A stretch of DNA of 64,000 nucleotides from Desulfatiglandales bacterium (GCA_963666345.1 OY762721.1:736001-800000); one strand, 5' to 3'. Shown: positions 49,055-64,000, counted from the first letter of the stretch. Translations and numbers: made by a program. Notes: generated by a model not told the origin, from the sequence alone.

Positions 49055-49120
49055 TAAGTTATCGGACTGTTCATATTTTGCCTTTAATCAAACACCTTAA
49101 CGACTAGAGAGGTGTTAGCC

Positions 49121-50137
49121 GTGGCAATCACCATAACAGAGCTAAGCAAGATCACCGGAGTAAGTCGTTCGACCATCTCCAGGGTCTTGAACAGGCCCCA
49201 CCTGGTAAAACAAGAAACACGCGATCGTGTCCTCAAGGCATTAAAGGACAACAATTACGTCTACAATGCCCTGGCAGGGGGATTGACAAAGAGAAAGACA
49301 GCAACGATCGCAGTCATCCTTCCAACAATTACCAATCCGGTCTTCGCGCTTTCCACAAAAGGTATTCAGGACAAGGCACAAAAACGGGGTTATTCGATAC
49401 TGCTGGGAAGCACGAATTACTCAGGAAAATCGGAATTCAAGCTCTTGACGTTATTTCATGAGAAAAGAATTGATGGAATAGTGTTCACAGGAACCCCCTT
49501 GAGCAAAGAATCGATAGAAATGACCTCACGCTTTGAAATTCCATATGTCATCACCTGGGAAAAATCTGATGAACAGGGTGTTTCCTATGTGGCATTTGAT
49601 AACAAAAAATGCGGTTTCAACGTCACCGAATACCTGATTTCTCTGGGACACAGGCATATAGGCATGATCGCGGGAAAATTCAGTGAGACATCCAGGGCCA
49701 GCAAACGCTGGTTGGGGTATAAAGAGGCCCTCAGCATGAATAGCATCAATTATGACGAAAGTATCGTCATTCAAAAGGGTTACTCAGTGACAAACGGCAA
49801 GGAAGCCGCCGGAAGGCTGCTTCGTGCGCCCGAACGACCCACAGCCATTGTTTGCGCAAACGACATCCTAGCCATAGGTGCCATGGCGGCGGCCAAAGAA
49901 ATGGGCTTAAAGGTCGGGGTAGACGTTTCGATAACCGGATTTGACGATCTTGAGGTTTCCGAAGCTCTTAATCCGTCCCTTACCACTTTTAAAATTCCTG
50001 CATACCGTATGGGGAAAATAGCCGCCCAGGTACTTATTGAAACTATTGAAGGGGAAATCAATGAGCCCCAGCAATACTTGCTGGAACCCAGTCTGGTCAT
50101 TAGAGATTCAACCGGGCAAGCCAAAGAAGTCGAATAG
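49121..50137 (+). CDS. LacI-family regulator (HpsR-like by context)
   Basis: GVSRSTISRVLN HTH; NDILAIG, SITGFDD, PSLTT. Confidence 0.93.
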   Translation: MAITITELSKITGVSRSTISRVLNRPHLVKQETRDRVLKALKDNNYVYNALAGGLTKRKTATIAVILPTITNPVFALSTKGIQDKAQKRGYSILLGSTNYSGKSEFKLLTLFHEKRIDGIVFTGTPLSKESIEMTSRFEIPYVITWEKSDEQGVSYVAFDNKKCGFNVTEYLISLGHRHIGMIAGKFSETSRASKRWLGYKEALSMNSINYDESIVIQKGYSVTNGKEAAGRLLRAPERPTAIVCANDILAIGAMAAAKEMGLKVGVDVSITGFDDLEVSEALNPSLTTFKIPAYRMGKIAAQVLIETIEGEINEPQQYLLEPSLVIRDSTGQAKEVE

Positions 50138-50537: not shown

Positions 50538-51695
50538 ATGCCTGATGACAAAAAAGAAGCTAGGGAACTGAAATCGGAAGAAAGACGCCGTTTCATGGAG
50601 CTGACAGCCAAGTTCGGATTCACGGCTGCAGTCCTTGCAATGACAACGGGAGTTCTGGGATCGCGTGAGGCATCTGCGGCGATAGGGAAGGAAGAGAAAG
50701 AGAGGCAGAAAGCCGCTAAGCACACGATGAATATCGCCACGGCCTACATTATCGGTGCATCGCGAAGCTACCCTATCATGCAGTTGGACATGAAAGAGAA
50801 CGTCCAGAACATGACCAGGGGCGATGTTTATGTAAAATTGGCCCCAGGCGGCCAGCTCGGTGCCGGCAGCACCCTGGCCCAAAAGGTTCAGGCAGGGACC
50901 ATTCAGGCCGCACAGCATTCCATTTCCAATTTCGCACCCTTCGCTCCGGCCGTTGATCTTATCAACATCCCTTACTGGTGTGGTGAGAATCAGAAATTCA
51001 TGAATCTGGTTACTTCTGAAACATGGAAAAAAGAAATAGAAGCAAAAGTGGCGGCCAGGGGGTTCAAAGTTCTCATGTATGTATGCATAGACCCACGCAC
51101 CGTGGCCATCCGAAAAGGCATTAAAGGCCCCATTAAAACCCCTGACCAGATGAAAGGCATCAAGTTCCGCGTTCCCGGCTCCAAGCTTCTTCAGCTGTTC
51201 TATAAGCTTGTCGGCGCCAACCCCACTCCGGTCGCATGGGGTGAAACAGCCTCCGCAATCAAGCAGGGTGTTGCAGACGCCCTCGATCCATCGGTGGAAG
51301 CTCTCTATGTCTTTGGTTTCAAGGACATCCTTTCCTATGTCACCTTTAACGCTGCGGTGCCTGACTCACAGGTTTATTCCTGCAACCTGAAGTGGCTTGA
51401 GAGCCTGCCCACAAAAGTGCGCGAGGGAGTCGAATTTGCAGGCGAAGTGACAATGAGGCAGAACCTGGCCAAAGTGCCTGCGGCCCGGGCTTTTGCCATG
51501 GCAGAGCTTGCCAAGTCCGGAGTCGAATTTTATGTCCCCACTGCGGAAGAAAAAAAGCAATGGGTTGAAAAGGCCGGGGCACAACTCCCCGCCTGGGACG
51601 ACATCAAAAAGGAACTGGCAGGATCGCTCAGCCTCTTTGATAGACTGCTGGAAGCGGCCAATACGCCCGGTAATTTCTATGTCCACGACGTGTGA
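50538..51695 (+). CDS. Tat-exported TRAP substrate-binding protein, HpsK-like (DHPS uptake)
   Basis: RRRFM twin-arginine signal; ATAYIIGASRSYPIMQLD, KLAPGGQLGAG resemble roseobacter HpsK (from recall); suyAB context. Confidence 0.8.
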   Translation: MPDDKKEARELKSEERRRFMELTAKFGFTAAVLAMTTGVLGSREASAAIGKEEKERQKAAKHTMNIATAYIIGASRSYPIMQLDMKENVQNMTRGDVYVKLAPGGQLGAGSTLAQKVQAGTIQAAQHSISNFAPFAPAVDLINIPYWCGENQKFMNLVTSETWKKEIEAKVAARGFKVLMYVCIDPRTVAIRKGIKGPIKTPDQMKGIKFRVPGSKLLQLFYKLVGANPTPVAWGETASAIKQGVADALDPSVEALYVFGFKDILSYVTFNAAVPDSQVYSCNLKWLESLPTKVREGVEFAGEVTMRQNLAKVPAARAFAMAELAKSGVEFYVPTAEEKKQWVEKAGAQLPAWDDIKKELAGSLSLFDRLLEAANTPGNFYVHDV

Positions 51696-51769
51696 TTAAA
51701 ATGATGCGTCCAGCGGCGTATGATCCTTTATTGCTGCTGGACGCAAAACACAAACGGGGAGAATGTTAC

Positions 51770-52291
51770 ATGAACATGTCACAGGTTTTGAGGACAATCG
51801 ACAAGGAGGGTGAAAGGTATTTACTCCTGCCCCTCTATGCCTTGATCGTCATAGTAATTTTTAGCGAGGTGATGCGCAGATTTGTCCTGAGCTATTCTTC
51901 CATATGGGCGGAAGAAGTGGCCCGATATGCCTTCATATACGTATCGTGGATCGGCGCCTCGGCAGCCATACGGGAACGGGCGCACATCAGGATTGATGTG
52001 ATATTTCAATTTGTCTCCGAGCGGGGCAAGGGAATTATCTTTATTTTCGGAGATATTGTCACCCTTGCCCTAGCGGTGACGGCATTTTACTGGTCCCTCC
52101 ACCCGGTTTTCACCTCACTCCATTTTGATTCGGTTACGCACGGCTTGAGAATCAGCCAGGCATGGTTTCTCGCTGCTGTACCCTTGGGGTTCGCGATGAT
52201 GACGATCCGCCTTATCCAATCCATCATAAGGGACGTATCCGATGTGAGGGCGAAAAGACCCGTATTCAAGGGCCAAAAGCTATTTGATTAG
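51770..52291 (+). CDS. TRAP small permease DctQ (HpsL-like)
   Basis: WAEEVARY, HIRID; 4 TM. Confidence 0.9.
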   Translation: MNMSQVLRTIDKEGERYLLLPLYALIVIVIFSEVMRRFVLSYSSIWAEEVARYAFIYVSWIGASAAIRERAHIRIDVIFQFVSERGKGIIFIFGDIVTLALAVTAFYWSLHPVFTSLHFDSVTHGLRISQAWFLAAVPLGFAMMTIRLIQSIIRDVSDVRAKRPVFKGQKLFD

Positions 52292-52302
52292 GAGGTGACA
52301 CA

Positions 52303-53616
52303 GTGCTGCAACAATATTTGATGCATCAACAGGATCTCACCCTCGGATGGGACTTTTATTTACCTTTGATTGCGATGGTTGTTCTTATTGCACTGGCCGC
52401 CAGGATCTGGGTGGTGGTTGGTGTAGGCTCGCTGGCAATGCTCCTGGCAACCGGCGTATTGCCCCCCACACTGATGGGCGAAGCCCTGTTCGACGGAATA
52501 GACTCCTTTGCGCTGATCGCGGTTCCCCTCTTCATCCTAACCGGAGACGTGCTGGTTCGAACGGGCCTGTCGAACAAGCTCCTTGATGTGGCGGAGGCGA
52601 CCATGGGCGCCCAGCGTTCAGGGTTGGGTACTTCTACGGTCTTGGGGTGCGGATTTTTTGCATGCATTTCCGGCTCCGACGCGGCGGATGCCGCAGCGAT
52701 CGGACGGATTACAATCCATCGCCTTGAGGAAAAAGGGTACCCCAAACCTTATGCCTGCGCCCTTGTTGCGGCAGGTGCATGCACAGGGATTCTTATTCCA
52801 CCTTCAATTTCCTACATCATAATCGGGCTGGTTTTAGGAATTTCAGCTTCCACCCTGTTTATGGCCGCAGCTATCCCTGGAGTATTAATTCTTTTGTCCA
52901 TCATGGTAACCAACGCAATAGTCAACCGCTTCAAAAGGTACGAAGATTCCAGTAGAGGCTTCAATTTCAAGTACTGGCTCAAGACCATATATGACGGCAA
53001 ATACGCACTGACTATTCCGATTATCATACTTGGGGGCATATACTCAGGCGTCTTCACTCCCACTGAGTCCGCTGCGGTAGCCGCAGCCATAACCATGATC
53101 ATCGGTTTTATCCAGAAAACCATCGGGCTGAAAGATATTCCCAAGATGCTGGAAACCTCAGCCAAGGTGAGCGGGGTGATTGTTCCCATCATTGCTATGT
53201 CCCTTCCCCTTGCACAGACCCTGGCCTCCCTGCAGGTGCCCCAGTATTTCGTGCATACCATGACTTCCCTCACGGAGAACCCCTACCTGATCATGCTGAT
53301 CATGCTGGGAGTTTTGATTATCGCCGGATGTATCATGGAGACCACGCCGAATATCGTGATCCTTGCACCTATTCTTTTGCCCCTGGCCCAGGAAATAGGC
53401 ATGGACGAGATTCATTTCTGTATCTTCTTTGTAACTGCATTGGGAATAGGGTTTATCACACCGCCGATGGGACTCAACCTGTTCGTGGTTTCGGGTGTTA
53501 CCCGTACGCCGGTTCTGTCCATCTCCCGTTATGCGGTGTACTTTGTAATCACCATGTTGATAGTGGAAATTATCATCATGACCGTGCCGTGGATTTCGCT
53601 GTGGCTGATACGCTGA
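52303..53616 (+). CDS. TRAP large permease DctM (HpsM-like)
   Basis: AVPLFILTG, ISGS, ILIPPSI, FTPTESAA, TPPMGLNL. Confidence 0.92.
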   Translation: MLQQYLMHQQDLTLGWDFYLPLIAMVVLIALAARIWVVVGVGSLAMLLATGVLPPTLMGEALFDGIDSFALIAVPLFILTGDVLVRTGLSNKLLDVAEATMGAQRSGLGTSTVLGCGFFACISGSDAADAAAIGRITIHRLEEKGYPKPYACALVAAGACTGILIPPSISYIIIGLVLGISASTLFMAAAIPGVLILLSIMVTNAIVNRFKRYEDSSRGFNFKYWLKTIYDGKYALTIPIIILGGIYSGVFTPTESAAVAAAITMIIGFIQKTIGLKDIPKMLETSAKVSGVIVPIIAMSLPLAQTLASLQVPQYFVHTMTSLTENPYLIMLIMLGVLIIAGCIMETTPNIVILAPILLPLAQEIGMDEIHFCIFFVTALGIGFITPPMGLNLFVVSGVTRTPVLSISRYAVYFVITMLIVEIIIMTVPWISLWLIR

Positions 53617-53666: not shown

Positions 53667-55547
53667 ATGCCATACGGATATAACGGACGCATACTGCATG
53701 TAAACTTAAGCAAAGGCAAATGGGAGATAGAGGAGCCTGATGAGACCTTTTACAGGGCCTATGTAGGGGGATCAAATTTTGCGGGCTATTATCTGTTAAA
53801 GCATATTAAACCGGGCATAGATCCTCTGTCAGATGAAAATGTCCTTGTCTTTGCATGCAGTGCGGTCACAGGGGCCCCCCTTTCAGGATTCAGCAGGTAC
53901 ACGGTAGCGGCCAAGTCACCGCTGACAGGGGGCTTTGGTGAATCAGAGGCTGGAGGCTACTTCGGCCCTGAGCTCAAATTTGCAGGCTTTGACGCCATCG
54001 TTATAACCGGTAAGGCTCAAGGCCCGGTATACCTATGGATAAAAGACGGGGAGGTGGAGATACGGGACGCATCTCGTCTGTGGGGAAAGGACAACTGGGT
54101 TACCCTTGAGAAGATCTGCGAGGAAAATGAAGACAAGAGGATAAGGGTTGCCTCCATAGGTCCGGCAGGTGAGAGAATGATCCCGTTTGCCAATGTCCAG
54201 AACGACCTGGAGCATTTTAACGGCCGCACCGGCATGGGGGCCGTCATGGGCTCCAAGAACCTCAAGGCAGTAGCTGTGAGGGGAAAGAAGAAGATGGAGA
54301 TGGCGGATCCTGACAAGGTAAAGGAGTTTGCCAAATGGCATGTCAGCTTCCTTAAAAAGCATCCGCCCGCAGTGGGTCTGAGCAAATTCGGAACGACCGG
54401 ACTGGTAAAGCCTCTTAATGATTCAGGCATACTTCCCACCAGGAATTTCAAGGAAGGTGTATTTGAGGGGGCGGACAAGATCGATGCCGATGCCTACCAG
54501 AAGGAGATTTTCCATTCTTCGGGCACCTGCTACGCCTGTGCCGTGAGGTGCAAGAGAAGGGTTGAATCGGACAGCGAGAAATACCCGCTTGACAAACGTT
54601 TCGGCGGCCCTGAATACGAGACCCTTGCATCGCTTGGCTCCCTTATCGGAAACGACAACCTGCTGGCGATAGCGCGCGGAAACCAGATCTGCAACCTTAT
54701 GGGCATGGATACGATCTCGGCGGGATGTGCCATAGCCTTTGCAATGGAGTGCTTTGAAAACGGAGTGCTTACGGAAGAAGACACCGGAGGCAGGGCCATA
54801 CCCTTTGGAGACGGGGATGCAATGATCTGGTTGCTTGAGGAGATCGTTAATCAGAGGGGGATAGGCAAGGTTCTTTCTAAGGGGGTAAAGAGGGCGGCAG
54901 AGGAGATCGGCAGGGGAGCCGAGAAGTATGCCCTTCACATAAAGGGTCAGGAGATGGCCTGTCATGACGGAAGGGGTAAGACCGGTATGGCCATGGGATT
55001 TGCGCTTTCCCCTACGGGCGCGGATCATGTGGAAACGCCCCATGACTCAGCCTTTGCAGCAAGCCCGGGGAACCTGATGCCGCTGGGGATGCTTGAACCG
55101 ATCGACCCCTTTGCCGTTGATGAGTCCAAGGTAAGGTTCTTTGTGCTCGGACAGAAGGCATGGGGACTCAATAACTGCTACGGGTTGTGTAATTTTGCCT
55201 CTGTTCCGCTTCATGGGAATACATTTCCAAAGCTTGTAGAGGCTATAACCGCAATAACGGGATGGGATACCAGCCTCCTTGAGATATTCAAGGTGGCTGA
55301 AAGATCAAATGTAATGGCCAGGATCTTTAATAACAGGGAAGGCTTCGGCCCTGAGGACGACAGGCTGGTGAACCGCTGGCACGAACAGATGCCTGCTGGT
55401 CCGATCAAGGGGCAGTATATCGATAAACAGGATTTTAGAAAGGCCATTGATCTGTACTATGAGATGTCGGGCTGGGATGAGGATGGAAGGCCTAAAAGGT
55501 CAAAACTGATCGAGCTCAACCTGGAATGGCTCATGGAAGATAATTGA
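53667..55547 (+). CDS. W/Mo-dependent aldehyde:ferredoxin oxidoreductase (AOR family)
   Basis: KSPLTG, GFDAI, IGPAGE, GRTGMGAVMGSKNLKA, CYACAVRC, GPEYET, GMDTIS. Confidence 0.92.
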   Translation: MPYGYNGRILHVNLSKGKWEIEEPDETFYRAYVGGSNFAGYYLLKHIKPGIDPLSDENVLVFACSAVTGAPLSGFSRYTVAAKSPLTGGFGESEAGGYFGPELKFAGFDAIVITGKAQGPVYLWIKDGEVEIRDASRLWGKDNWVTLEKICEENEDKRIRVASIGPAGERMIPFANVQNDLEHFNGRTGMGAVMGSKNLKAVAVRGKKKMEMADPDKVKEFAKWHVSFLKKHPPAVGLSKFGTTGLVKPLNDSGILPTRNFKEGVFEGADKIDADAYQKEIFHSSGTCYACAVRCKRRVESDSEKYPLDKRFGGPEYETLASLGSLIGNDNLLAIARGNQICNLMGMDTISAGCAIAFAMECFENGVLTEEDTGGRAIPFGDGDAMIWLLEEIVNQRGIGKVLSKGVKRAAEEIGRGAEKYALHIKGQEMACHDGRGKTGMAMGFALSPTGADHVETPHDSAFAASPGNLMPLGMLEPIDPFAVDESKVRFFVLGQKAWGLNNCYGLCNFASVPLHGNTFPKLVEAITAITGWDTSLLEIFKVAERSNVMARIFNNREGFGPEDDRLVNRWHEQMPAGPIKGQYIDKQDFRKAIDLYYEMSGWDEDGRPKRSKLIELNLEWLMEDN

Positions 55548-55600: not shown

Positions 55601-56461
55601 ATGTTATTCGGAATTGTTGGAGTCGGAAATATGGGAGGCGGCATTGCCAGAAACCTTATCAGGGCCGGGAAAGATCTACTTATCTATGACATAAATGAAG
55701 AGGCCGCGGCGAAGGTGGCTGAAACAGGACCGACAGGCAAGGTTGCCAAAGGCGTAGATGAATTGGCCGCAGCAGATGTCGTCTTCACAAGCCTTCCCCT
55801 TCCCCAGCATATTGAAGGTGTAATGCTCGGGGATGACGGACTGTTAAACAAGATGAAGAAGGGCTCCACCTATATAGAGGTAAGCACTATCGATCCCAAG
55901 TCAGCCAGAAAACTTTCTGATGCCTGCGATGAAAAAGGGATAGATTTTCTGGAATGTCCTCTGGGCAAGACACCTGCGGCAACGGAAAAGGCGGAAGAAC
56001 CCATCTTTGTAGGCGGAAAAAAAGAGGTATTTGAAAAAATGAAGGACCTGCTCGACATACTAGGATCTGATGCCTACTACATGGGAGAGGTGGAGGCATC
56101 AAGCGCCTTCAAACTCATAAGCAACATGATAGGGATGACCAACCTAGCCGTGCTCGCAGAAGGAATCAGGATCGGAGAAAAGGCCGGCATCGACAAGAAG
56201 ATGCTCATAGAACTTCTGGACGATACAGGCGCCAAGAGCTTCCAGATGGATGTAAGAGGCCCCTGGATAGTTAATGGGGACTTCCAGAATCGCTTCGGAC
56301 TCGATCTCGCCTTAAAGGATGTCAGGCTTGGCTGTGAAATGGCCGACGCCTGGGGAAACGATGCAACTACCATGAAGGTGGCCCTCGACTATTTCAAGAA
56401 GGCAAGTTCCGAAGGCCTAGGAAAAGATGACTGTAACGCGATCTATAAGATAATCAAATAG
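55601..56461 (+). CDS. 3-hydroxyisobutyrate dehydrogenase-family oxidoreductase (candidate DHPS dehydrogenase/sulfolactaldehyde reductase)
   Basis: GIVGVGNMG, STI, PLGKTP, KLISN, KDVRL; context. Confidence 0.85.
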   Translation: MLFGIVGVGNMGGGIARNLIRAGKDLLIYDINEEAAAKVAETGPTGKVAKGVDELAAADVVFTSLPLPQHIEGVMLGDDGLLNKMKKGSTYIEVSTIDPKSARKLSDACDEKGIDFLECPLGKTPAATEKAEEPIFVGGKKEVFEKMKDLLDILGSDAYYMGEVEASSAFKLISNMIGMTNLAVLAEGIRIGEKAGIDKKMLIELLDDTGAKSFQMDVRGPWIVNGDFQNRFGLDLALKDVRLGCEMADAWGNDATTMKVALDYFKKASSEGLGKDDCNAIYKIIK

Positions 56462-56573
56462 TATTATTGCACGAATCTGTTTTTCGATCGTCAGGAAAAA
56501 CGCGTCAGAGTCATACAGTTTGCAAAGGCCTTCCCCGGAATCGTCGGCCTGTATCTCGAATCCGGACATACCC

Positions 56574-56709
56574 GCCCGATATTAGGCTTTGAAACTTAAC
56601 CCAAGCCTAATATTGGGCATTTACTTAATCCTCTTTATCATCTATATTGTATAAGGACATAAAATACAGGATGTTAAGGAAAGCAGGCTCAACTGGCATG
56701 AATGTTGCC
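56574..56709 (+). promoter_or_regulatory. Sigma54 promoter with paired palindromic upstream sites, upstream of suyAB
   Basis: gcccgatattaggc (56574) and gcctaatattgggc (56605); TGGCATGAATGTTGC at 56694. Confidence 0.7.
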
Positions 56710-56963
56710 TTTCAATTTATCCGTAAGCATATATTGCCGGTGAGCAATGGTATAAATTTTACTTGGTTTTGCGTTCAGCGACTTTTTAATTAAGACATTG
56801 TTTATATCCAAGGTCGATGCGTTCGTAAAAAGTCAAATTTCGACTACTTATGATAGATACCGCAGTTTCCATATCGAAACAGATAGCAGGTATCCGGTAG
56901 TATTGTGTAAGATTTTATTTTTATCAATCCAAGCAAACACTAACAATTAATGGAGGAGAAAAA

Positions 56964-57242
56964 ATGACGGATTTTTTGATTCATGAAAAGGCTGACACCG
57001 TAGGTGTGGCCACTGTTGACATCAAGGCCGGTGAAACGGCTGAGGGTCTTTACATGGACACCCAGGAAAAAATCACAAAAAAGGCGCTTCAGGACATACC
57101 TCTTGGCCACAAGATCGCACTGAGGGACCACAAGGTGGACGAAGGCGTGATCAAATACGGTCATGACATCGGCAGGGTGGTTGCCGACTTCAAGGATGGA
57201 GAACATGTCCACATTCACAATCTGAAGACCAGGAGGTGGTAA
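56964..57242 (+). CDS. suyA: Sulfolactate sulfo-lyase small subunit (SAF domain)
   Basis: [41 protein letters not shown]. Confidence 0.85.
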
Positions 57243-57244
57243 GA

Positions 57245-58408
57245 ATGAGTAATCGTAAAGTATTAGGGTATCGAAGAGAAAACGGTCGCGTCGGGATCCG
57301 CAACCATGTCGCAATTCTTCCCCTGGACGATCTGTCCAATGCGGCATGCGAGGCGGTGGCAAACAATATAAAGGGAACCAGGGCACTGCCCCACCCATAC
57401 GGCAGGCTGCAGTTCGGTGAGGATCTTGAGCTGTTTTTCCGCACAATGATAGGCACCGGCTCAAACCCCAATGTAGCTGCCGTCGTTGTAATAGGCATAG
57501 AACCTGAATGGACGAACAGGATAGTGGAAGGAATAAGAAAGACCGGAAAGCCTGCCGAAGGCTTTTCAATTGAGCGTACCGGCGATATCGGCACCATTGC
57601 AAAGGCATCCTGGAAGGCCAAAGAATTCGTCCACTGGGCCTCCGAGCTGAGAAGAGAGGAAGTAGACCTGTCCGAGATCTGGGTATCGGTAAAGTGCGGA
57701 GAGTCCGACACTACTTCAGGCCTCGCATCCAACCCTACGGTTGGAAACGCGATCGACAAGCTGGTGGAAATGGGCGCAACCTGCTCCTTCGGGGAGACCT
57801 CCGAGATCACCGGCGCAGAGGATGTGTGCCAGGCAAGGGCAGCCACGCCGGAGCTTGGTGAGGCCTTCATGAAGATTTGGAACGACTATAATGATTTCAT
57901 AAACGAAAACAAGACGGACGACCTCTCAGGCTCCCAGCCCACCAAGGGAAACATCAGGGGCGGGCTGACCACGATCGAAGAAAAAGCCTTCGGAAACCTC
58001 CAGAAGATCGGCAAGAAGTCCAACTACGTAGGGGTTCTTGGGCCGGCAGAGGCACCAACAGGCCCAGGCCTCTGGTTTATGGACACCTCATCGGCGGCGG
58101 CCGAGGCGGTCACCCTCTGGATGGCGGCAGGCTTCGTATGCCATTTCTTCCCCACCGGTCAGGGTAATATCATCGGCAACCCGATTGAGCCGGTGATCAA
58201 GCTTTCAGCCAATCCGCTGACGGTTTCCACCATGGTCGAGCATATCGATTATGACTGCTCAGGCATACTTCGCGGTGAGATGACACTGGATGAATCCGGG
58301 GATAACCTGCTTAACATGCTTGAGAGGACCTGTAACGGCAGAAGAACTTCTCAGGAGGTACTGGGACATTTCGAATACGTGCTCACCAAACTGTACAGAA
58401 GCGCGTAA
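57245..58408 (+). CDS. suyB: Sulfolactate sulfo-lyase large subunit (UxaA family)
   Basis: [62 protein letters not shown]; ends LTKLYRSA. Confidence 0.88.
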
Positions 58409-58612
58409 GATCTATCTGTTTAGACAATGCGGGGGAATTTCTCCCGCATTGAAACTGAAGCATCGCCTCTCGTCACCTCCTGTCTGCATATGAGTTATGG
58501 TAAGGGTTAAGTTACACGGTTTACAAGATGCCTTGCATCATGGGCCGGTGCGGGATCTGTTATTGAAAAATATATACCTGTAATTGTAAGGGAGGGGATA
58601 ACCGACCAGGAT

Positions 58613-59323
58613 CTAGAAACTGTCGATATCCCATGCATTTTTCAGGTCATCGTAGACGCTTGCGAGATGAAGTTCCATGGCTCTTTTGGCACCCTGTACG
58701 TCATGCTCGCGGATTGCATCAATGGTTGCCTTATGCTGGCGTGCAGACTCAAGTATCCTGCCCGGAATCGAGTGCGTATGCTTGCTGAATGCGGCAAGAT
58801 AGGTAAGGAGGCTCTGCATCAGATCTACTATTATTGTATTTTTTGATATCCTGGCGACACATAGATGAAACTTCCGGTCCAGTTCACCGAACCTGACAAG
58901 GTTGTTTTCCTCCAGCAATATCTTATTTGTTTCTTCGGCAAGAAGGTTCAACTCAGTGATATCCGATTCCTCGCAATTCGCTGCAGCCCATCCGGCAGTG
59001 GAGGTTTCCAGCACTTCTCTAACCTGAAACAGATTCTTGGCCAGATGGCGATTCAGAGTAAGGAGACTTGAAAGCTGACGTGCAACCGTTTCCCCGTTGA
59101 CATCAGCGACAAAGATTCCTGATCGATGCTTTACCTGTAAAATTCCCAGCCCGTTCAAAGTGTTTACAGCATCACGAATAACAGTGCGACTTATATTGAA
59201 ATCGGTCGCCATCTTCCTCTCAGGGGGAAGCCTGTCGCCAGCCTTTAACCGGTGCTGAATTATGTATTTCTCTATTCTACCTACTGCCTGATCTTTGAGG
59301 GACCTTGTTTTTTCCGTGGGCAT
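58613..59323 (-). CDS. GntR/FadR-family regulator
   Basis: GDRLPPER, SRTVIRDA wHTH; FCD domain D..FH, H..H. Confidence 0.93.
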   Translation of the reverse strand: MPTEKTRSLKDQAVGRIEKYIIQHRLKAGDRLPPERKMATDFNISRTVIRDAVNTLNGLGILQVKHRSGIFVADVNGETVARQLSSLLTLNRHLAKNLFQVREVLETSTAGWAAANCEESDITELNLLAEETNKILLEENNLVRFGELDRKFHLCVARISKNTIIVDLMQSLLTYLAAFSKHTHSIPGRILESARQHKATIDAIREHDVQGAKRAMELHLASVYDDLKNAWDIDSF

Positions 59324-59620
59324 GGTTTTCTCGCAAATGAAATATTGAATCGATTTTTATCGTCTCTAAGGTACGCCGTATAGTTAGCAGAAGATAGTGC
59401 ACCCCGCATTTTCTAGACCAACTGAGCTTACACATTCTGTCTATTTTGGTATACCGCATAGGGCTAGCAGCAAGTTTCTTCACTGTCAAGTCGGTTTTAC
59501 GGAATCTTCTGTTTCAACAGGCTGATTTTATTGTCTTCATGCTCCTTTAATAGTACAACTAATTGAAAATACTATTCAATATAATACGATATAAAATTTT
59601 ATGTTTGGCACCATTTTCAC

Positions 59621-59682
59621 TTGACATGCATACCTGCAGTCTGTAAAGAATATTCATTGGTAATACCATTTTGGTAGCACCA
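59621..59682 (+). promoter_or_regulatory. Promoter (TTGACA) with two tandem FadR-type TGGT-N3-ACCA boxes
   Basis: tggtaatacca 59658-59668 and tggtagcacca 59672-59682, between the divergent GntR and sulfatase-like genes. Confidence 0.7.
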
Positions 59683-59752
59683 GATATTTATTTTAGATAA
59701 AGAGATCTTTTACAACCAAAAACATTATTTTATTTCGGGGGGAATAGATACA

Positions 59753-61294
59753 ATGCGTGTTATTCTTATTATATCAGATACCTTTAGGTATGATTTATTG
59801 GCAAAAGAGGGGAAAATGGCCGCCAGCACCCCGGAATTGGATCAACTTATCGAGGATTCGGTGTTTTTCGAACGTCATTACGCCGGAAGCTTCCCCACTG
59901 TTCCGCACCGGTTCGACATGTACACCGGGACATGCGGATTTCCTTACAGGGGATGGGAGATACTCGGACCTAAGGATATTACCCTTGGCGAAATTCTTAT
60001 GGACCACGGCTATATCACGCAACTTATTGCGGATACGGCCAACCTGCTGCGGCGCGGGATGAACTATGATCGCGGCTATCTGGGCTATTATCTTACACGC
60101 GGCCAGGAACGGGATATATACCTCACAAAAATGAACCGCCCTATTGAGTATGTTATTCCTCTTGCCAAGTCTCGCCACACAACCTACTTTCGCGACCACG
60201 CCCAGGTGGATATAGCCAGATGGATCAATGATGAGTGGCTGTGGGAAGAAGACCGCTTTGCGGCACGCACGTGTCAGGTGGCGGGGCGATGGCTTGAATC
60301 AAACTACAAGGAGGAGAACTTCTTTCTGCACCTTGACATGTTTGATCCACATGAGCCGTGGGATCCACCGGAATACTTTGTCGCAAAATATGCCGACCCT
60401 GAATATAAAGGCACACCCATGATGTATCCGAATTACGGCCCGGCCGATATATTTACCGAGGCTGAAATAGACAACATGTCGGCCCACTACAAGGCGGAAG
60501 CTGAAATGACCAGCAAGTGGATAGGCAATGTGATCCGTAAGATAAAAGATGTGGGCATATATGATGAAAGCCTTATCATTTTTGCTAGTGATCACGGCCT
60601 GTACCTGGGCGAGCATAATAGAACCGGTAAGCTTAACATCTCCAAAGATGACAAACGTGGGCCCTGGCCGCTCTATGAAGAGCTGATTCGCGTCCCGTTG
60701 GCCATAAAGATGCCGGGTAACAAACTGGCGGGGAAAAGAATAACTGAGATAGTGCAGCCCGTTGATCTGCTGCCGACTATTCTCGATATTGCAGGCATAT
60801 CGACTGATCAGAAGCTGCCGGCAAAAGCGCTTCTGCCTGATCGCGAAATCATAATGGAAAATCCCGGGATAATCCTAGGCCGCGAGAAAGGCCTGAATCC
60901 CCTTGACGGAAAATCTCTTGTTCCTCTCATGGAAAATGACGCGATTTCATGGGACCGCAGATACGCCTTTTCATCTCAGAAGGTTGGAAGGGTAGGAGGA
61001 CAGACATCAGGGCCTATGCCTGTGCTGCCTGAAGCAGAAGATACAGTAAACTGGATTACCGTTACAGGCAAGCAGCATGCACTGGTAATCGGAGGAAAGC
61101 GGGATGACCTCCCCGAGCTTTACGACCTTGAAAGTGACGGGCGGCAGGCAAATAATATCTTTTCCGAAAAAAGAGAACTTGCCCAGGAGATGGCTGGTGC
61201 CCTCTTCACCTATCTTGAACAGAACAACGTTGAAAGCGACCTTATAGATATTTATCGCACAAGGCTCGATATAGGTGACAAAACCGATGCCTAG
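59753..61294 (+). CDS. Sulfatase-like alkaline-phosphatase-superfamily hydrolase with Thr at the nucleophile position
   Basis: ISDTFRYD, SFPTVPHR..TG, FDPHEPWDPP, SDHG, VDLLPTILD, ELYDL. Confidence 0.85.
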   Translation: MRVILIISDTFRYDLLAKEGKMAASTPELDQLIEDSVFFERHYAGSFPTVPHRFDMYTGTCGFPYRGWEILGPKDITLGEILMDHGYITQLIADTANLLRRGMNYDRGYLGYYLTRGQERDIYLTKMNRPIEYVIPLAKSRHTTYFRDHAQVDIARWINDEWLWEEDRFAARTCQVAGRWLESNYKEENFFLHLDMFDPHEPWDPPEYFVAKYADPEYKGTPMMYPNYGPADIFTEAEIDNMSAHYKAEAEMTSKWIGNVIRKIKDVGIYDESLIIFASDHGLYLGEHNRTGKLNISKDDKRGPWPLYEELIRVPLAIKMPGNKLAGKRITEIVQPVDLLPTILDIAGISTDQKLPAKALLPDREIIMENPGIILGREKGLNPLDGKSLVPLMENDAISWDRRYAFSSQKVGRVGGQTSGPMPVLPEAEDTVNWITVTGKQHALVIGGKRDDLPELYDLESDGRQANNIFSEKRELAQEMAGALFTYLEQNNVESDLIDIYRTRLDIGDKTDA

Positions 61295-61406
61295 GGCGTA
61301 AATACAATCAACTGACAGCGATTAATCGTTGATTACGGCCCTCGTAATAACCACATAATTCATGAAAAATGACACCAGCTCATGATTTTACATGTGAAAA
61401 ACTGAC

Positions 61407-61539
61407 GCCCAATAATAGGCACCCGGACGGGTCATTGCCTATTATTGGGCTTTCTTTTCGGTTGTTTATCTGGTATCAAAACAAAAGATATACAATCACG
61501 CACATTTGCAAAGAAGTAGAATCTGGCACGTAAATTGCT
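61407..61539 (+). promoter_or_regulatory. Sigma54 promoter with paired palindromic upstream sites, upstream of the larA homologue
   Basis: gcccaataataggc (61407) and gcctattattgggc (61437); TGGCACGTAAATTGC at 61524. Confidence 0.75.
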
Positions 61540-61582
61540 GTATGTATTTTAGAAAAATTTTTTTTTGAAAGAGGCCTTTTTG

Positions 61583-62872
61583 ATGGATGTCGAGCTAAAA
61601 TATGGGAAGGGGTCCAGATTGATCAAGATCCCTTCAAAGGCTAAGGTGACCATGCTGAACCCTGCTACCCTTCCTGCATTGGGAAATATTTCAGGGTCAC
61701 TTGATTCGGCCTTGTCCTCCCCGGTAGAACGGCCCGCTCTAGTGGACTATCTTTCGGAAAAAAGGCCCAAAACCATTTCCATTGCCATTTCCGACGAAAG
61801 CAGACCGGTACCGGTCAAAGCCATCATCCCTTCACTCCTCAAGCATCTCTATAAAGCGCTTCCCGGCCTAAAGCCTTCTGACGTGACGATTGTGATAGGA
61901 GGTGGCCTGCATCCGCCCCCCGATAAAGCGGGTATAGAGAGGATCATCCCCTCTTCTCTGACCCAGGGTTGCAGAGTGACGGCACATGATGCCATCTCCT
62001 CGAAAGTCAGCGATTTCGGAGTAACTACGCGCGGAACCCCGGTACGCATAAATCGGGAATTGGCAACTGGTGACTGCAAGATCTCCATCGGCCTCATAGA
62101 CCCCCATCAGTTCGTCGGTTTTACAGGGGGCGCAAAGGGTGTGGTAATAGGCTGTGCCGCCGCGGAAACCATCGAACATAATCACAAGCTCATGTATGAA
62201 GACAACGCCCAGGTCGGCAGGCTGGAGGGCAACCCCGTAAGGGAGGACCTGAATGAGGCGGGGGACCGGGTGGGGATAGATTATGCGATAAATGTGGTGC
62301 TTAACGGGGATAAAAAGGCTGTTGAACTTTTTTGCGGAGAGCCGAAAGCGGTGCTTAAAAAGGGAGCTGCCGTATGTGCCTCCCTGTACGGGGTAGGGAT
62401 AAAGAAAAAGTTTGATATGGTTATTGCGTCATGTGGGGGTTTTCCAAAGGATATCTGTCTGTATCAGGCCCAGAAGGGGCTAAATCTTGCTTCACATGCC
62501 GTTAGGGAAGGTGGGAAAATCCTGCTTCTGGCCGCCTCTTCTCAGGGAGTGGGAGATGACGTTTATTTGGACTATGTCTCGCGCTTTGCAACTCCCCGGG
62601 AGGTTCTTGATGACTTTGCCGAAAGTGGATTCAAGATGGGCGCTCACAAGGCATATCTGTTCGGAAGGACCCTTGCCAGTTATGATGTTGCGGTGGCCTC
62701 CGAGCTCGATGCCGATGTTCTGAGGACCTGCCAGCTCAAGGCCGTAGCCCCTGACTCTACCATTGAGAAATGGGTCAGGGATTTCGAGGGGCGCCCGCGC
62801 GTCGCGGTCGTCCCCAATGCAAATACAACCTATTTTTACCAGGAAGGACTTGAAATAAAGGGGCAAAAATAA
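61583..62872 (+). CDS. LarA-family nickel-pincer hydroxyacid racemase
   Basis: SDESRP, GGLH, PHQFVGFTGGAK, NH, LYQAQKG. Confidence 0.9.
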   Translation: MDVELKYGKGSRLIKIPSKAKVTMLNPATLPALGNISGSLDSALSSPVERPALVDYLSEKRPKTISIAISDESRPVPVKAIIPSLLKHLYKALPGLKPSDVTIVIGGGLHPPPDKAGIERIIPSSLTQGCRVTAHDAISSKVSDFGVTTRGTPVRINRELATGDCKISIGLIDPHQFVGFTGGAKGVVIGCAAAETIEHNHKLMYEDNAQVGRLEGNPVREDLNEAGDRVGIDYAINVVLNGDKKAVELFCGEPKAVLKKGAAVCASLYGVGIKKKFDMVIASCGGFPKDICLYQAQKGLNLASHAVREGGKILLLAASSQGVGDDVYLDYVSRFATPREVLDDFAESGFKMGAHKAYLFGRTLASYDVAVASELDADVLRTCQLKAVAPDSTIEKWVRDFEGRPRVAVVPNANTTYFYQEGLEIKGQK

Positions 62873-63150
62873 GACGGGAGGCCAAAAGGTTTCATCGAAG
62901 TTTGAGCAGGCTTTCAAGAATGAACAATCGAGAAAGAACCGGCTCTTAACTGCCGATTCTTCTAAATCGATGAGGCGAATACCAGAGGCATGAGTTTCTG
63001 CTCACCAGGCCTATCGGGAATGCACAATAATCTTTGGTCCTTACCCGGTTTTTCGGATAAGATTCGGTTTGTAAAGGGGTGCATCTACAATTTAACAGGA
63101 ACGGCTGAGCACTCCGCAGCTTTTCCACTGACGTAAGGAGGCTAGTTACA

Positions 63151-64000
63151 ATGAAAAAAGCATTATTTACTATCTTTGTTTTTCTTTGCGTGTGTGCCTT
63201 CACCATGCCGGCAATGGCGGCAGACAAGTATCCTTCAAGGCCTATAACCTACCAGGTGGCATTTCCTCCCGGCGGCCAATCAGACCTTGAAGCACGAAGG
63301 CAGCAGCCCTACCTGGAAAAAATTCTTGGACAAAAGGTCATTATTCAGTACAAACCGGGCGGAGGGGGATCCATCTGCTGGGCTGATCTTGTAAAACAGA
63401 AACCGGACGGTTATTTCGTAGCCGGTTTTAACGTTCCCCACATTGTCCTTCAGCCACTTGCTCGCGGCAACGCCGGATATGAAACCGATCAGCTTACCCC
63501 TATCGCCATCTTTCAGGCTACCGCGCTGGGTCTTGCCGTAATGAAAGATTCCCGTTTCAAGACGATTAAGGACCTGGTGGAATTCGCTAAAAAGCACCCC
63601 GGTGAAGTCGTTGCGGGTGGTTCGGGCACATGGTCGGGTCCCCACCTGGCATTTCTGCAGTTCTGCACACTTGCCGGCATCGAGATGACCTGGATTCCTT
63701 ATAAAGGGGCAGCCCCGGGGGTAGCCGCATTCCTTGGCAAGCATATTGAGATTACCCTTGCCAATTCCAATGACCTTGTATCTCATAAGGATAAGATTCG
63801 TGTACTTGCAATGGGCACGGAGGAACGCTTCAAACACTTTCCCGACACACCCACTTTTCAGGAGCTGGGCTATGACATGACCGCCAGTGTTGACCGCGGC
63901 TTGGCCGGACCTCCGGGGTTTCCCGAGGAAGCGGTCAAAGTCCTTGAAAAGGCATGCCTTGATATCGCCTCAAAGCCAGAGGTGGTTGCAGCCCTTGAAC
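63151..64000 (+). CDS. Tripartite tricarboxylate transporter binding protein (TctC/Bug), runs off the window end
   Basis: AAGGAGG RBS; signal peptide; YPSRPI..VAFPPGGQSD, KPGGGG, PDGY, IPYKG, PDTPTFQELGY. Confidence 0.92.
   Translation, partial: MKKALFTIFVFLCVCAFTMPAMAADKYPSRPITYQVAFPPGGQSDLEARRQQPYLEKILGQKVIIQYKPGGGGSICWADLVKQKPDGYFVAGFNVPHIVLQPLARGNAGYETDQLTPIAIFQATALGLAVMKDSRFKTIKDLVEFAKKHPGEVVAGGSGTWSGPHLAFLQFCTLAGIEMTWIPYKGAAPGVAAFLGKHIEITLANSNDLVSHKDKIRVLAMGTEERFKHFPDTPTFQELGYDMTASVDRGLAGPPGFPEEAVKVLEKACLDIASKPEVVAALE

Follow-up and report, generated by a model that had tools for sequence, protein, structure and literature searches.

The stretch of DNA considered here (the window, meaning the whole 64,000 nucleotides analysed) comes from a Desulfatiglandales bacterium and corresponds to positions 736001-800000 of a genome of 4,162,108 bases, which is assembled as one contig and is 96.7% complete. 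It carries suyAB, the genes for a two-subunit (2R)-sulfolactate sulfo-lyase, and larAH5, a gene of the nickel-pincer-nucleotide (NPN) 2-hydroxyacid racemase family. Both loci are preceded by a pair of 14-bp sites and a sigma54 promoter, and a gene for a bacterial enhancer-binding protein (bEBP) lies about 3.3 kb past the window end. These elements are discussed here as possible parts of one regulon for the use of sulfolactate. The features that are central to the argument are listed below, with positions counted from the first letter of the window unless the genome is named.

56574-56587 and 56605-56618, no strand assigned: putative activator site pair 1, from a motif scan, with a consensus common to relatives
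56694-56708, plus strand: sigma54 promoter of suyAB, TGGCATGAATGTTGC, with -24/-12 elements
56964-57242, plus strand: suyA, small subunit of (2R)-sulfolactate sulfo-lyase (Pfam SAF)
57245-58408, plus strand: suyB, catalytic subunit (Pfam GD_AH_second, GD_AH_C), with ATG at 57245 and an alternative GTG at 57236
61407-61420 and 61437-61450, no strand assigned: putative activator site pair 2, a perfect 14-bp inverted repeat followed by TTTCTTTTC
61524-61538, plus strand: sigma54 promoter of the larAH5-tct operon, TGGCACGTAAATTGC, with -24/-12 elements
61583-62872, plus strand: larAH5, NPN 2-hydroxyacid racemase family (Pfam Lar_N, LarA_C), with ATG at 61583 and a frame open from TTG at 61565
63151-64000, continuing past the window end, plus strand: tctC, solute-binding protein of the tripartite tricarboxylate transporter (TTT) family (Pfam TctC)
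beyond the window, after tctC: tctA and tctB (Pfam TctA, TctB)
genome G000:C1:802205-803752 (L001:3205-4752), minus strand: bEBP gene, 515 amino acids (Sigma54_activat, GAF, HTH_8), convergent on the tct genes

An initial annotation of this DNA had described the two pairs of 14-bp motifs, and their positions, spacing, and distances to the promoters were all reproduced. Pair 1 consists of GCCCGATATTAGGC at 56574 and GCCTAATATTGGGC at 56605 (31 bp from start to start) and pair 2 of GCCCAATAATAGGC at 61407 and GCCTATTATTGGGC at 61437 (30 bp); from the end of the second site to the sigma54 box the distance is 76 bp in pair 1 and 74 bp in pair 2. The box itself, TGGCAY-N5-TTGC, occurs only twice on the two strands of the window, at 56694 and 61524. 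The sites had been written as GCC-N8-GGC; they are real, but the palindrome GCCCAATATTGGGC is the better description of them. Across the whole genome the pattern GCCYRWTAWTRGGC has five matches, namely the four sites in the window and one at genome position 803894. If as many as three mismatches to GCCCAATATTGGGC are tolerated, the genome has 98 matches, which is not above the expectation from base composition; both of the one-mismatch matches fall in this locus, and the only two pairs lying 14-60 bp apart among the 98 are precisely pair 1 and pair 2. The paired sites are real and chance is excluded as their origin.

The fifth site lies 142 bp 5' of the start codon of the bEBP gene. A genome scan for the motif, as had been suggested, returns two pairs only, plus a single site at the gene of the presumed activator. 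The bEBP has a Walker A motif at residue 228 and the GAFTGA motif at residue 275, and rpoN is present in the genome (432.8 bits against a cut-off of 277.35). Across from the single site at the bEBP gene, on the opposite strand, are a small open frame of ThiS/MoaD-like type (region L001:4893-5405) and a ThiF-family gene (L001:5450-6223). A further strict sigma54 box, TGGCATATAAATTGCC, is found outside the window at L001:6558 (G000:C1:805558) with no 14-mer nearby, about 250 bp before an Fe-S/CCG-domain/pyridine-nucleotide-disulfide-oxidoreductase operon (L001:6815-12570).

Besides the sites and the promoter, the control regions of suyAB and larAH5 share little. A leader of about 256 nt separates the sigma54 promoter from suyA (56709-56963). 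Neither this leader nor the other intergenic stretches had any match by tblastn with the proteins of the locus or by blastn with the fetched loci, and the remnant of a deleted gene in the leaders was rejected on this basis. In Rfam, the sole match within 56400-63200 was a sub-threshold one to the sRNA BjrC68, on the minus strand within larA (25.4 bits, the threshold being 39), which is taken as a chance match. A site for integration host factor between the sites and the promoters was judged by eye and dropped as unconvincing.

Comparison with relatives extends these observations to other genomes. For the related larAH5 loci, 411 relatives from public contigs were ranked by their similarity to a query alignment of 12 LarAH5 proteins, and the best 80 were examined; a second sample consisted of 401 genomes of the phylum searched with a LarAH5 model. 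Among the 66 related loci with at least 2 kb of upstream sequence, 50 have a homologue of the bEBP (at least 50% identity) that is divergent from larAH5 and within 3.5 kb of it. In 52 loci this homologue is within 800 bp of larAH5, and the intergenic region between them contains at least one site (GCCCAATATTGGGC, up to three mismatches) in 50 cases and at least two in 33, the consensus having been built from the window and six loci, the contig of one of which (L080) is among the 52. The spacing of the sites in these relatives is 19 bp in 30 of the 33 regions with at least two. In 49 of the 50 site-bearing regions the last site has a GG-N10-TTGC box 71-79 nt behind it, mostly at 74-77 nt as in the window, against a background of 0.015 per equivalent stretch, and the promoter in relatives is about 25-60 nt before larAH5.

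In the relatives, the palindrome thus stands between a bEBP gene and a larAH5 gene that are transcribed divergently, so the sites cannot be terminators there. The spacing of 30-31 bp in the window, compared with 19 bp in relatives, amounts to about one helical turn more, which would leave the sites facing the same side of the helix. As the simplest history, a bEBP-larAH5-suyAB unit in an ancestor was split in this genome into two units, both of which kept the sites and the promoter. The conserved operator suggests that the bEBP binds the palindromic sites, and co-regulation of the two loci by one activator, as the initial annotation had it, gains computational support from a bEBP gene nearby with its own site and from an operator that is kept in relatives.

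The association of larAH5 with suyAB is also found well beyond this genome. Where at least 400 bp of downstream sequence was available, suyA lies within 600 bp 3' of larAH5 on the same strand in 62 of 74 loci, and the SuyA homologues found directly 3' of larAH5 in relatives are 49-84% identical to that of the window. SuyA or SuyB is encoded somewhere in 68 of the 80 related loci; of the other 12, five end no more than 300 bp from larAH5. Homologues of genes for degradation of 2,3-dihydroxypropane-1-sulfonate (DHPS), either aldehyde:ferredoxin oxidoreductase (AOR) or a HIBADH-family dehydrogenase, are present in 35 of the 80, and TctA in 49. In the 401-genome sample, LarAH5 was found in 12 genomes and SuyB (at E <= 1e-130) in 18; both occur in 8, where 0.54 would be expected if they were independent, and in all 8 the genes are within about 11 kb of each other. 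Related genomes do not count as independent in this comparison. The linkage had been proposed as a check of the relationship between the two genes, and it holds in this form: both in 8 of 401 genomes, always close together, and mostly adjacent in the related loci. Around the 18 best LarA loci that fell below the family cut-off, SuyA or SuyB was found within 1.5 kb in none. The sites, promoters, genes, family memberships, synteny, and conservation of the operator are direct observations.

SuyB occurs without LarAH5 in 10 genomes of the sample: two have another LarA, one has the layout with the dehydrogenase genes slcC and comC that is discussed below, one has suyB on a 3.7-kb contig, and six have neither kind of gene near suyAB. 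In the two with another LarA (G012, L126:6365-9141, and G091, L128:6269-9128), an unclassified LarA homologue is encoded directly 5' of suyAB, with transaldolase and ROK genes as neighbours. This protein shares 31% identity with the LarAH5 of the window, and its best NCBIfam match reaches 199 bits against a cut-off of 500; a second LarA lineage may here have been co-opted independently for sulfolactate, within a sulfo-transaldolase cluster.

The suyA stop codon (57240-57242) is followed by the suyB ATG at 57245, giving two adjacent subunits, one with SAF and the other with the GD_AH_second and GD_AH_C domains. SuyB is identical to a 387-residue database protein and 82-95% identical to many others, several of which are named (2R)-sulfolactate sulfo-lyase subunit beta by the Joint Genome Institute. 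Against 72,556 plasmid records, 13 records were found at 62-68% identity (from Paracoccus, Cupriavidus pinatubonensis, Sinorhizobium mexicanum, Methylobacterium, Rhodococcus, and others) and all others were below 60%; the best of the other UxaA proteins listed was at 39%. The C. pinatubonensis plasmid copy, at 65.5%, sits in a cluster of hpsN, hpsO, a major facilitator superfamily gene, a dehydrogenase gene, and suyAB, and the Paracoccus protein is 67% identical, with the copy in Paracoccus versutus lying between GntR and sulfate-exporter genes. Because of these bimodal identities and the hpsN and sulfate-exporter contexts, the pair in the window is taken as true SuyAB, orthologous by sequence to the plasmid-borne SuyB proteins.

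LarAH5 is recognized by Pfam (PF09861 at 3.7e-44 and PF21113 at 8.5e-13) and falls in the NCBIfam family NF052595, 'nickel-dependent malate racemase, LarAH5 family', with 542 bits against a cut-off of 462. The family is sharply delimited in the 401-genome sample, where 12 genomes score at least 523 bits and the next best is at 411. Counting residues from the TTG at 61565, D77, R80, H116, H181, K191, H207, and K304 correspond to D72, R75, H108, H174, K184, H200, and K298 of LarA, by alignment with Mar2 and equivalences given in passages of PMC7583248, and these positions are invariant in 12 aligned LarAH5 sequences. K362 falls on the lysine of Mar2 for which binding of the distal carboxylate has been proposed, and the two residues that follow the catalytic histidine are Q-F (HQF) in all 12 sequences. 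The cofactor genes that the initial annotation had named as a point to check, larB, larC, and larE, are all present above cut-off, scattered in the genome (LarC 211.9 bits against 90, LarB 297.4 against 175, and LarE 294.3 against 150).

To our knowledge, the SlcC/ComC dehydrogenase pair is the only described way of inverting sulfolactate. The need for inversion arises from stereochemistry, as SuyAB is (R)-specific and the DHPS and sulfolactate derived from sulfoquinovose are mainly (S), according to passages in sources that include PMC10507020. SlcC is defined by PF00389 with PF02826 and ComC by PF02615 (PMC12421959, supplementary table). No match to PF02615 was found in the host genome, and its three matches to PF00389, at 0.43, 1.03, and 2.27 Mb, are far from the window, so the earlier remark that slcC and comC are missing from the window extends, for the ComC family, to the whole genome. 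With no PF02615 gene and with the PF00389 genes outside the window, the SlcC/ComC route cannot run here in the form in which it has been described. The HIBADH-family gene at 55601 was considered as a hidden slcC and ruled out, since SlcC combines PF00389 with PF02826.

Taken together, these findings make it reasonably probable that the window contains a sulfolactate-responsive sigma54 regulon in which LarAH5 is a one-step sulfolactate racemase. The protein that binds the sites, the inducer, and the substrate of the racemase are in each case proposed from sequence and genomic context. Within these terms, the suggestion in the initial annotation that the LarA homologue racemises sulfolactate is supported computationally by its place beside suyAB in relatives, by the poor malate kinetics of a characterized family member (see below), and by the lack of ComC. 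For the broader statement, that the whole LarAH5 clade consists of NPN-dependent one-step sulfolactate racemases controlled by a GAF-type sigma54 activator of their own, with sulfolactate as its signal and GCCCAATATTGGGC as its binding site, the balance tips slightly in favour.

In the proposed mechanism, the host would be a dissimilatory sulfite or sulfate reducer (dsrA is present in its genome), and the suyAB and larAH5 loci would be halves of one regulon. The bEBP would bind GCCCAATATTGGGC pairs about 75 bp upstream of the two -24/-12 promoters and activate suyAB and larAH5-tctCAB; its GAF domain probably senses sulfolactate, and it probably controls its own gene as well. By analogy with Desulfovibrio sp. 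DF1, DHPS would be imported by a transporter of the tripartite ATP-independent periplasmic (TRAP) type, oxidized to sulfolactaldehyde by the HIBADH-type enzyme, and converted to sulfolactate by AOR; alternatively, sulfolactate may be imported by the TTT transporter. LarAH5, with NPN supplied by LarB, LarC, and LarE, would then interconvert (S)- and (R)-sulfolactate by proton-coupled hydride transfer through enzyme-bound sulfopyruvate. SuyAB would cleave (R)-sulfolactate to pyruvate and sulfite, and Dsr would reduce the sulfite.

The genes for the upper part of this route lie in an operon upstream of suyAB, and two other genes intervene between suyAB and larAH5.

50538-51695, plus strand: dctP, TRAP substrate-binding protein (NCBIfam)
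51692-52291, plus strand: dctQ, TRAP transporter (Pfam DctQ)
52303-53616, plus strand: dctM, TRAP transporter (Pfam DctM)
53667-55547, plus strand: AOR, tungsten-type (Pfam AFOR_N, AFOR_C)
55601-56461, plus strand: HIBADH-family dehydrogenase (Pfam NAD_binding_2, NAD_binding_11)
58613-59323, minus strand: GntR/FCD regulator, intervening (Pfam)
59753-61294, plus strand: sulfatase-family gene, intervening (Pfam Sulfatase)

The dctPQM system is a candidate importer of DHPS or another sulfonate, and homologues of DctP (at least 60% identity) are found in 16 of the 80 related loci. AOR is a candidate for the step from sulfolactaldehyde to sulfolactate, with homologues in 30 of the 80. The HIBADH-family gene (homologues in 33) is a candidate DhpA-like DHPS 3-dehydrogenase; its NCBIfam matches to tartronate-semialdehyde and sulfolactaldehyde reductases are all below cut-off. 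Homologues of the intervening GntR and sulfatase genes are absent from all 80 related loci, and both genes are probably outside the regulon. NCBIfam gives no specific name for SuyA, SuyB, TctC, TctA, or the bEBP. A gene for a LacI-family regulator (49112-50137) lies just 5' of the dctPQM-AOR-HIBADH operon, and the hpsN clusters of Cupriavidus and Paracoccus are likewise preceded by LacI regulators; this likeness suggests that the DHPS genes and the sulfolactate genes may have different regulators.

Contigs of relatives were found in metatranscriptomes of four marine-sediment runs of one study (X10-X13). Contigs at least 92% alike cover suyAB and the start of tctC in all four runs, and larA is partly covered (61641-61923 and 62698-62958) in two to three of them. 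These contigs are those of relatives and carry-over of DNA is possible, and they reveal neither expression level nor start sites nor co-induction; they are not counted as evidence, and nor is the lack of cover in the same runs over 58648-59663 (GntR).

The host genome encodes a second LarA and UxaA-type pair outside the window (G000:C1:3909892-3917161, L136). In this pair, an NPN isomerase of group 22 (NF052515, 512 bits against a cut-off of 400) is encoded directly 3' of a UxaA-like dehydratase, and the pair is preceded by genes for an aldehyde dehydrogenase, a HIBADH-type dehydrogenase, and an aconitase-X-like pair (DUF126). In several genomes of one genus (G146, G391, G079, and G293), Ldh_2 and a different LarA homologue are encoded at a distance of about 2-3 kb from each other.

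Several observations weigh against sulfolactate as the substrate of LarAH5 or limit the reach of the comparison. The curated family name and the sole measured LarAH5 activity are those of malate racemisation, with weak epimerisation of tartrate. Seven of the 80 related loci have at least 900 bp of downstream sequence and no suyAB in the fetched DNA, and SuyB at E <= 1e-130 is missing from 4 of the 12 LarAH5 genomes (G199, G233, G290, and G375). Six of the SuyB-only genomes lack LarA as well as SlcC/ComC genes in the neighbourhood of suyAB, so SuyAB can work without a linked racemase. One genus has suyAB (68-70% identical; L129, L132, L133, L134, and L135, from genomes G146, G293, G343, G367, and G391) beside genes for an RraA-like aldolase, a Na+:dicarboxylate symporter, a class I fumarase, or an enolase-superfamily protein. 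A complementary distribution of LarAH5 and ComC was looked for among the SuyB genomes of the sample and not seen: of the 8 that also have LarAH5, 3 carry intact Ldh_2 genes, as do 5 of the 10 with SuyB only; PF02615 is too broad a proxy for ComC. The related loci are mostly contigs of metagenome-assembled genomes from a single phylum, some from shared surveys, and are not independent. The site pairs in this genome, finally, could also serve as terminators of the upstream genes.

A different function for the racemase can be imagined in two ways. LarAH5 could be a malate or tartrate racemase for C4 hydroxy-dicarboxylates imported by the TTT system, with the UxaA-type pair active in dicarboxylate catabolism (for example, tartrate to oxaloacetate) or linked to larAH5 only incidentally. 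TTT transporters carry carboxylates, and this property, the name of NF052595, the alignment of K362 with the lysine of Mar2, and the one genus in which suyAB adjoins RraA-like, dicarboxylate symporter, and class I fumarase genes all speak for such a role. The enzyme from Desulfitobacterium hafniense, Mar1, which is itself a LarAH5, does racemise malate, but its KM is 55 mM, its kcat/KM is only 390 M-1 s-1 compared with 630,000 for LarAH62 (PMC7583248, PMC11770544), about 1600-fold less, and its epimerisation of tartrate is weak (kcat/KM 2-14 M-1 s-1; PMC11770544). Because of this KM, its discoverers themselves doubted the assignment, noting in a passage of their paper that malate is perhaps not the native substrate and that the genomic context was uninformative (PMC7583248). 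The invariant HQF loop in place of the HYK of Mar2, the DHPS-pathway genes at 35 of the 80 loci, and a partner protein that shares 62-68% identity with the SuyB proteins from validated clusters of Paracoccus and Cupriavidus, but no more than 39% with the other UxaA proteins listed, also argue against malate, and we regard this explanation as unlikely. A little less likely still is a racemase for some other 2-hydroxy acid, for example another sulfonated or substituted one, with a 'SuyAB' whose substrate is broader or different. The doubt over malate as native substrate leaves room for this, and further LarA and UxaA-type pairs do exist, including the group-22 pair in this genome; however, the encoded route from DHPS to pyruvate contains no 2-hydroxy carboxylic acid other than sulfolactate, SuyB belongs to a tight orthogroup, and the linkage is specific to the LarAH5 clade.

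The remaining alternative concerns the sites, which might be nothing but hairpin terminators or a dispersed repeat of no regulatory meaning. Within each pair, one 14-mer is the reverse complement of the other (at 13 of 14 positions in pair 1 and 14 of 14 in pair 2), so each pair is also an inverted repeat capable of forming a hairpin. The predicted minimum free energies of these RNA hairpins are strong, at -26.7 kcal/mol for pair 1 and -31.7 kcal/mol for pair 2 (z of -6.95 and -5.01), and both pairs start exactly 113 nt past the stop codon of the gene before them (56461 and 61294). After pair 2 comes TTTCTTTTC, a T-run, which allows a second role for the pairs as terminators of the HIBADH and sulfatase genes. 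On the other side, the full hairpins combine AT-rich stems with loops 17 and 16 nt long, which are poor terminator features, pair 1 has no T-run, and a terminator scan lists just the self-folding single 14-mers. The initial annotation had allowed for a common repeat, and the motif is not dispersed, being confined to two pairs and one bEBP site genome-wide. Since the palindrome in relatives lies between divergent genes and about 75 bp before a sigma54 box, the terminator-only reading is largely refuted and has very little probability, and a dual role in this genome is possible.

DHPS and sulfolactate are C3 products of sulfoquinovose; all three count among the most abundant compounds of organic sulfur, and in sediments and guts they are converted to hydrogen sulfide by anaerobes. 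If LarAH5 is a sulfolactate racemase, it would be the first NPN enzyme known to act on an organosulfonate, extending nickel-pincer chemistry to sulfonates, and it would supply the missing inversion by which anaerobes that reduce sulfite or sulfate could channel (S)-DHPS and (S)-sulfolactate from sulfoquinovose into an (R)-specific SuyAB. It would also answer the question of the native substrate left by the discoverers of Mar1, correct the 'malate racemase' annotation that is now spreading in genomes, and make larAH5 a clean marker gene for complete anaerobic mineralisation of sulfolactate and DHPS. The conserved operator and its activator are a candidate sulfolactate sensor. The enzyme family and the promoter class are already known; what is new is the proposed substrate, the role in the pathway, and the operator. 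In the searched literature, with subscription-only papers outside its coverage, no one-step or nickel-pincer sulfolactate racemase is described, and the term 'SL racemase' is used in one work for the SlcC/ComC pair. The association of LarAH5 with COG2721 had already been tabulated, uninterpreted, by Desguin et al. (2020), whose Table S1 lists for group 5 COG2721 'altronate dehydratase' at 100%, TctC/TctA at 26%, and a GAF-AAA-Fis regulator at 16% (PMC7583248). The string 'sulfo' is absent from the main texts of PMC7583248 and PMC11770544 and from the supplement of the former, and according to a passage in a review of 2026, sulfolactate serves D. hafniense DCB-2 as an electron acceptor (PMC12890257).

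Among characterized enzymes, Mar1 is a close counterpart of the LarAH5 of the window. The two share the family NF052595, the fold and residues of an NPN-dependent 2-hydroxyacid racemase, and a context, since the COG2721, TctC/TctA, and GAF-AAA-Fis neighbours of group 5 are those seen here. They differ in that Mar1 has been assayed on carboxylates only, whereas sulfolactate, which is malate's sulfonate analogue, is proposed here as the native substrate. Among relatives of solved structure the best is Mar2, or LarAH6, the malate racemase of Thermoanaerobacterium thermosaccharolyticum (PDB 6D6Z, 7S91; E 7.7e-69 over residues 8-427). The D, R, two H, K, H, QK, and GAHK lysine of Mar2 are aligned with LarAH5, but Mar2 has HYK rather than HQF after the catalytic histidine and GGHK where GGAK is found here, and it has a sub-millimolar KM for malate, a malic-enzyme context, and no suyAB (PMC7583248).

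The putative activator resembles sigma54 activators of the FhlA/NifA type with a GAF domain, as it combines GAF, an AAA+ domain with GAFTGA, and HTH_8, and the tandem palindromic sites about 75 bp upstream of a -24/-12 promoter are also of that type. FhlA and NifA are its best NCBIfam matches, although it reaches only 369 bits against the FhlA cut-off of 830 and no equivalog cut-off; the operator GCCCAATATTGGGC and the presumed ligand set this bEBP group apart from both.

The pathway can be compared with three known solutions. The SlcC/ComC pair of Chromohalobacter salexigens, Taurinivorans muris, and Paracoccus wurundjeri likewise turns (S)- into (R)-sulfolactate before SuyAB, and such systems also have a TTT transporter and suyAB as neighbours, as in G207, where the order is tctCA-suyAB-GntR-SlcC-ComC; a passage of PMC10507020 proposes the TTT transporters SlcHFG as sulfolactate importers. 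They use two NAD(P)-dependent enzymes with free sulfopyruvate, in contrast to the single NPN enzyme without a free intermediate that is proposed here. In Desulfovibrio sp. DF1 (Burrichter et al. 2018), as in the window, a HIBADH-type DHPS dehydrogenase is encoded next to AOR and SuyAB feeds sulfite respiration; passages of that work report by proteomics that DhpA, the adjacent AOR, and SuyAB are DHPS-induced, and the recombinant AOR was inactive in the authors' assay (PMC6278857). Racemic substrates were used there, the words stereo, enantiomer, and chiral do not occur, and no racemase was proposed (PMC6278857), so that the stereochemistry of a DF1-type pathway was left open. DF1 differs in having a SlaB-type dehydrogenase and ATP-binding cassette transport; the cluster in the window has no SlaB-type gene and has TRAP and TTT systems instead. 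HpsO and HpsP of Cupriavidus pinatubonensis, whose SuyB is the 65.5% identical protein mentioned above, deal with the same stereochemical mismatch before SuyAB, but there the inversion acts on DHPS through two dehydrogenases followed by HpsN, genes that were not seen in the window, whereas the racemase proposed here would act on sulfolactate itself.

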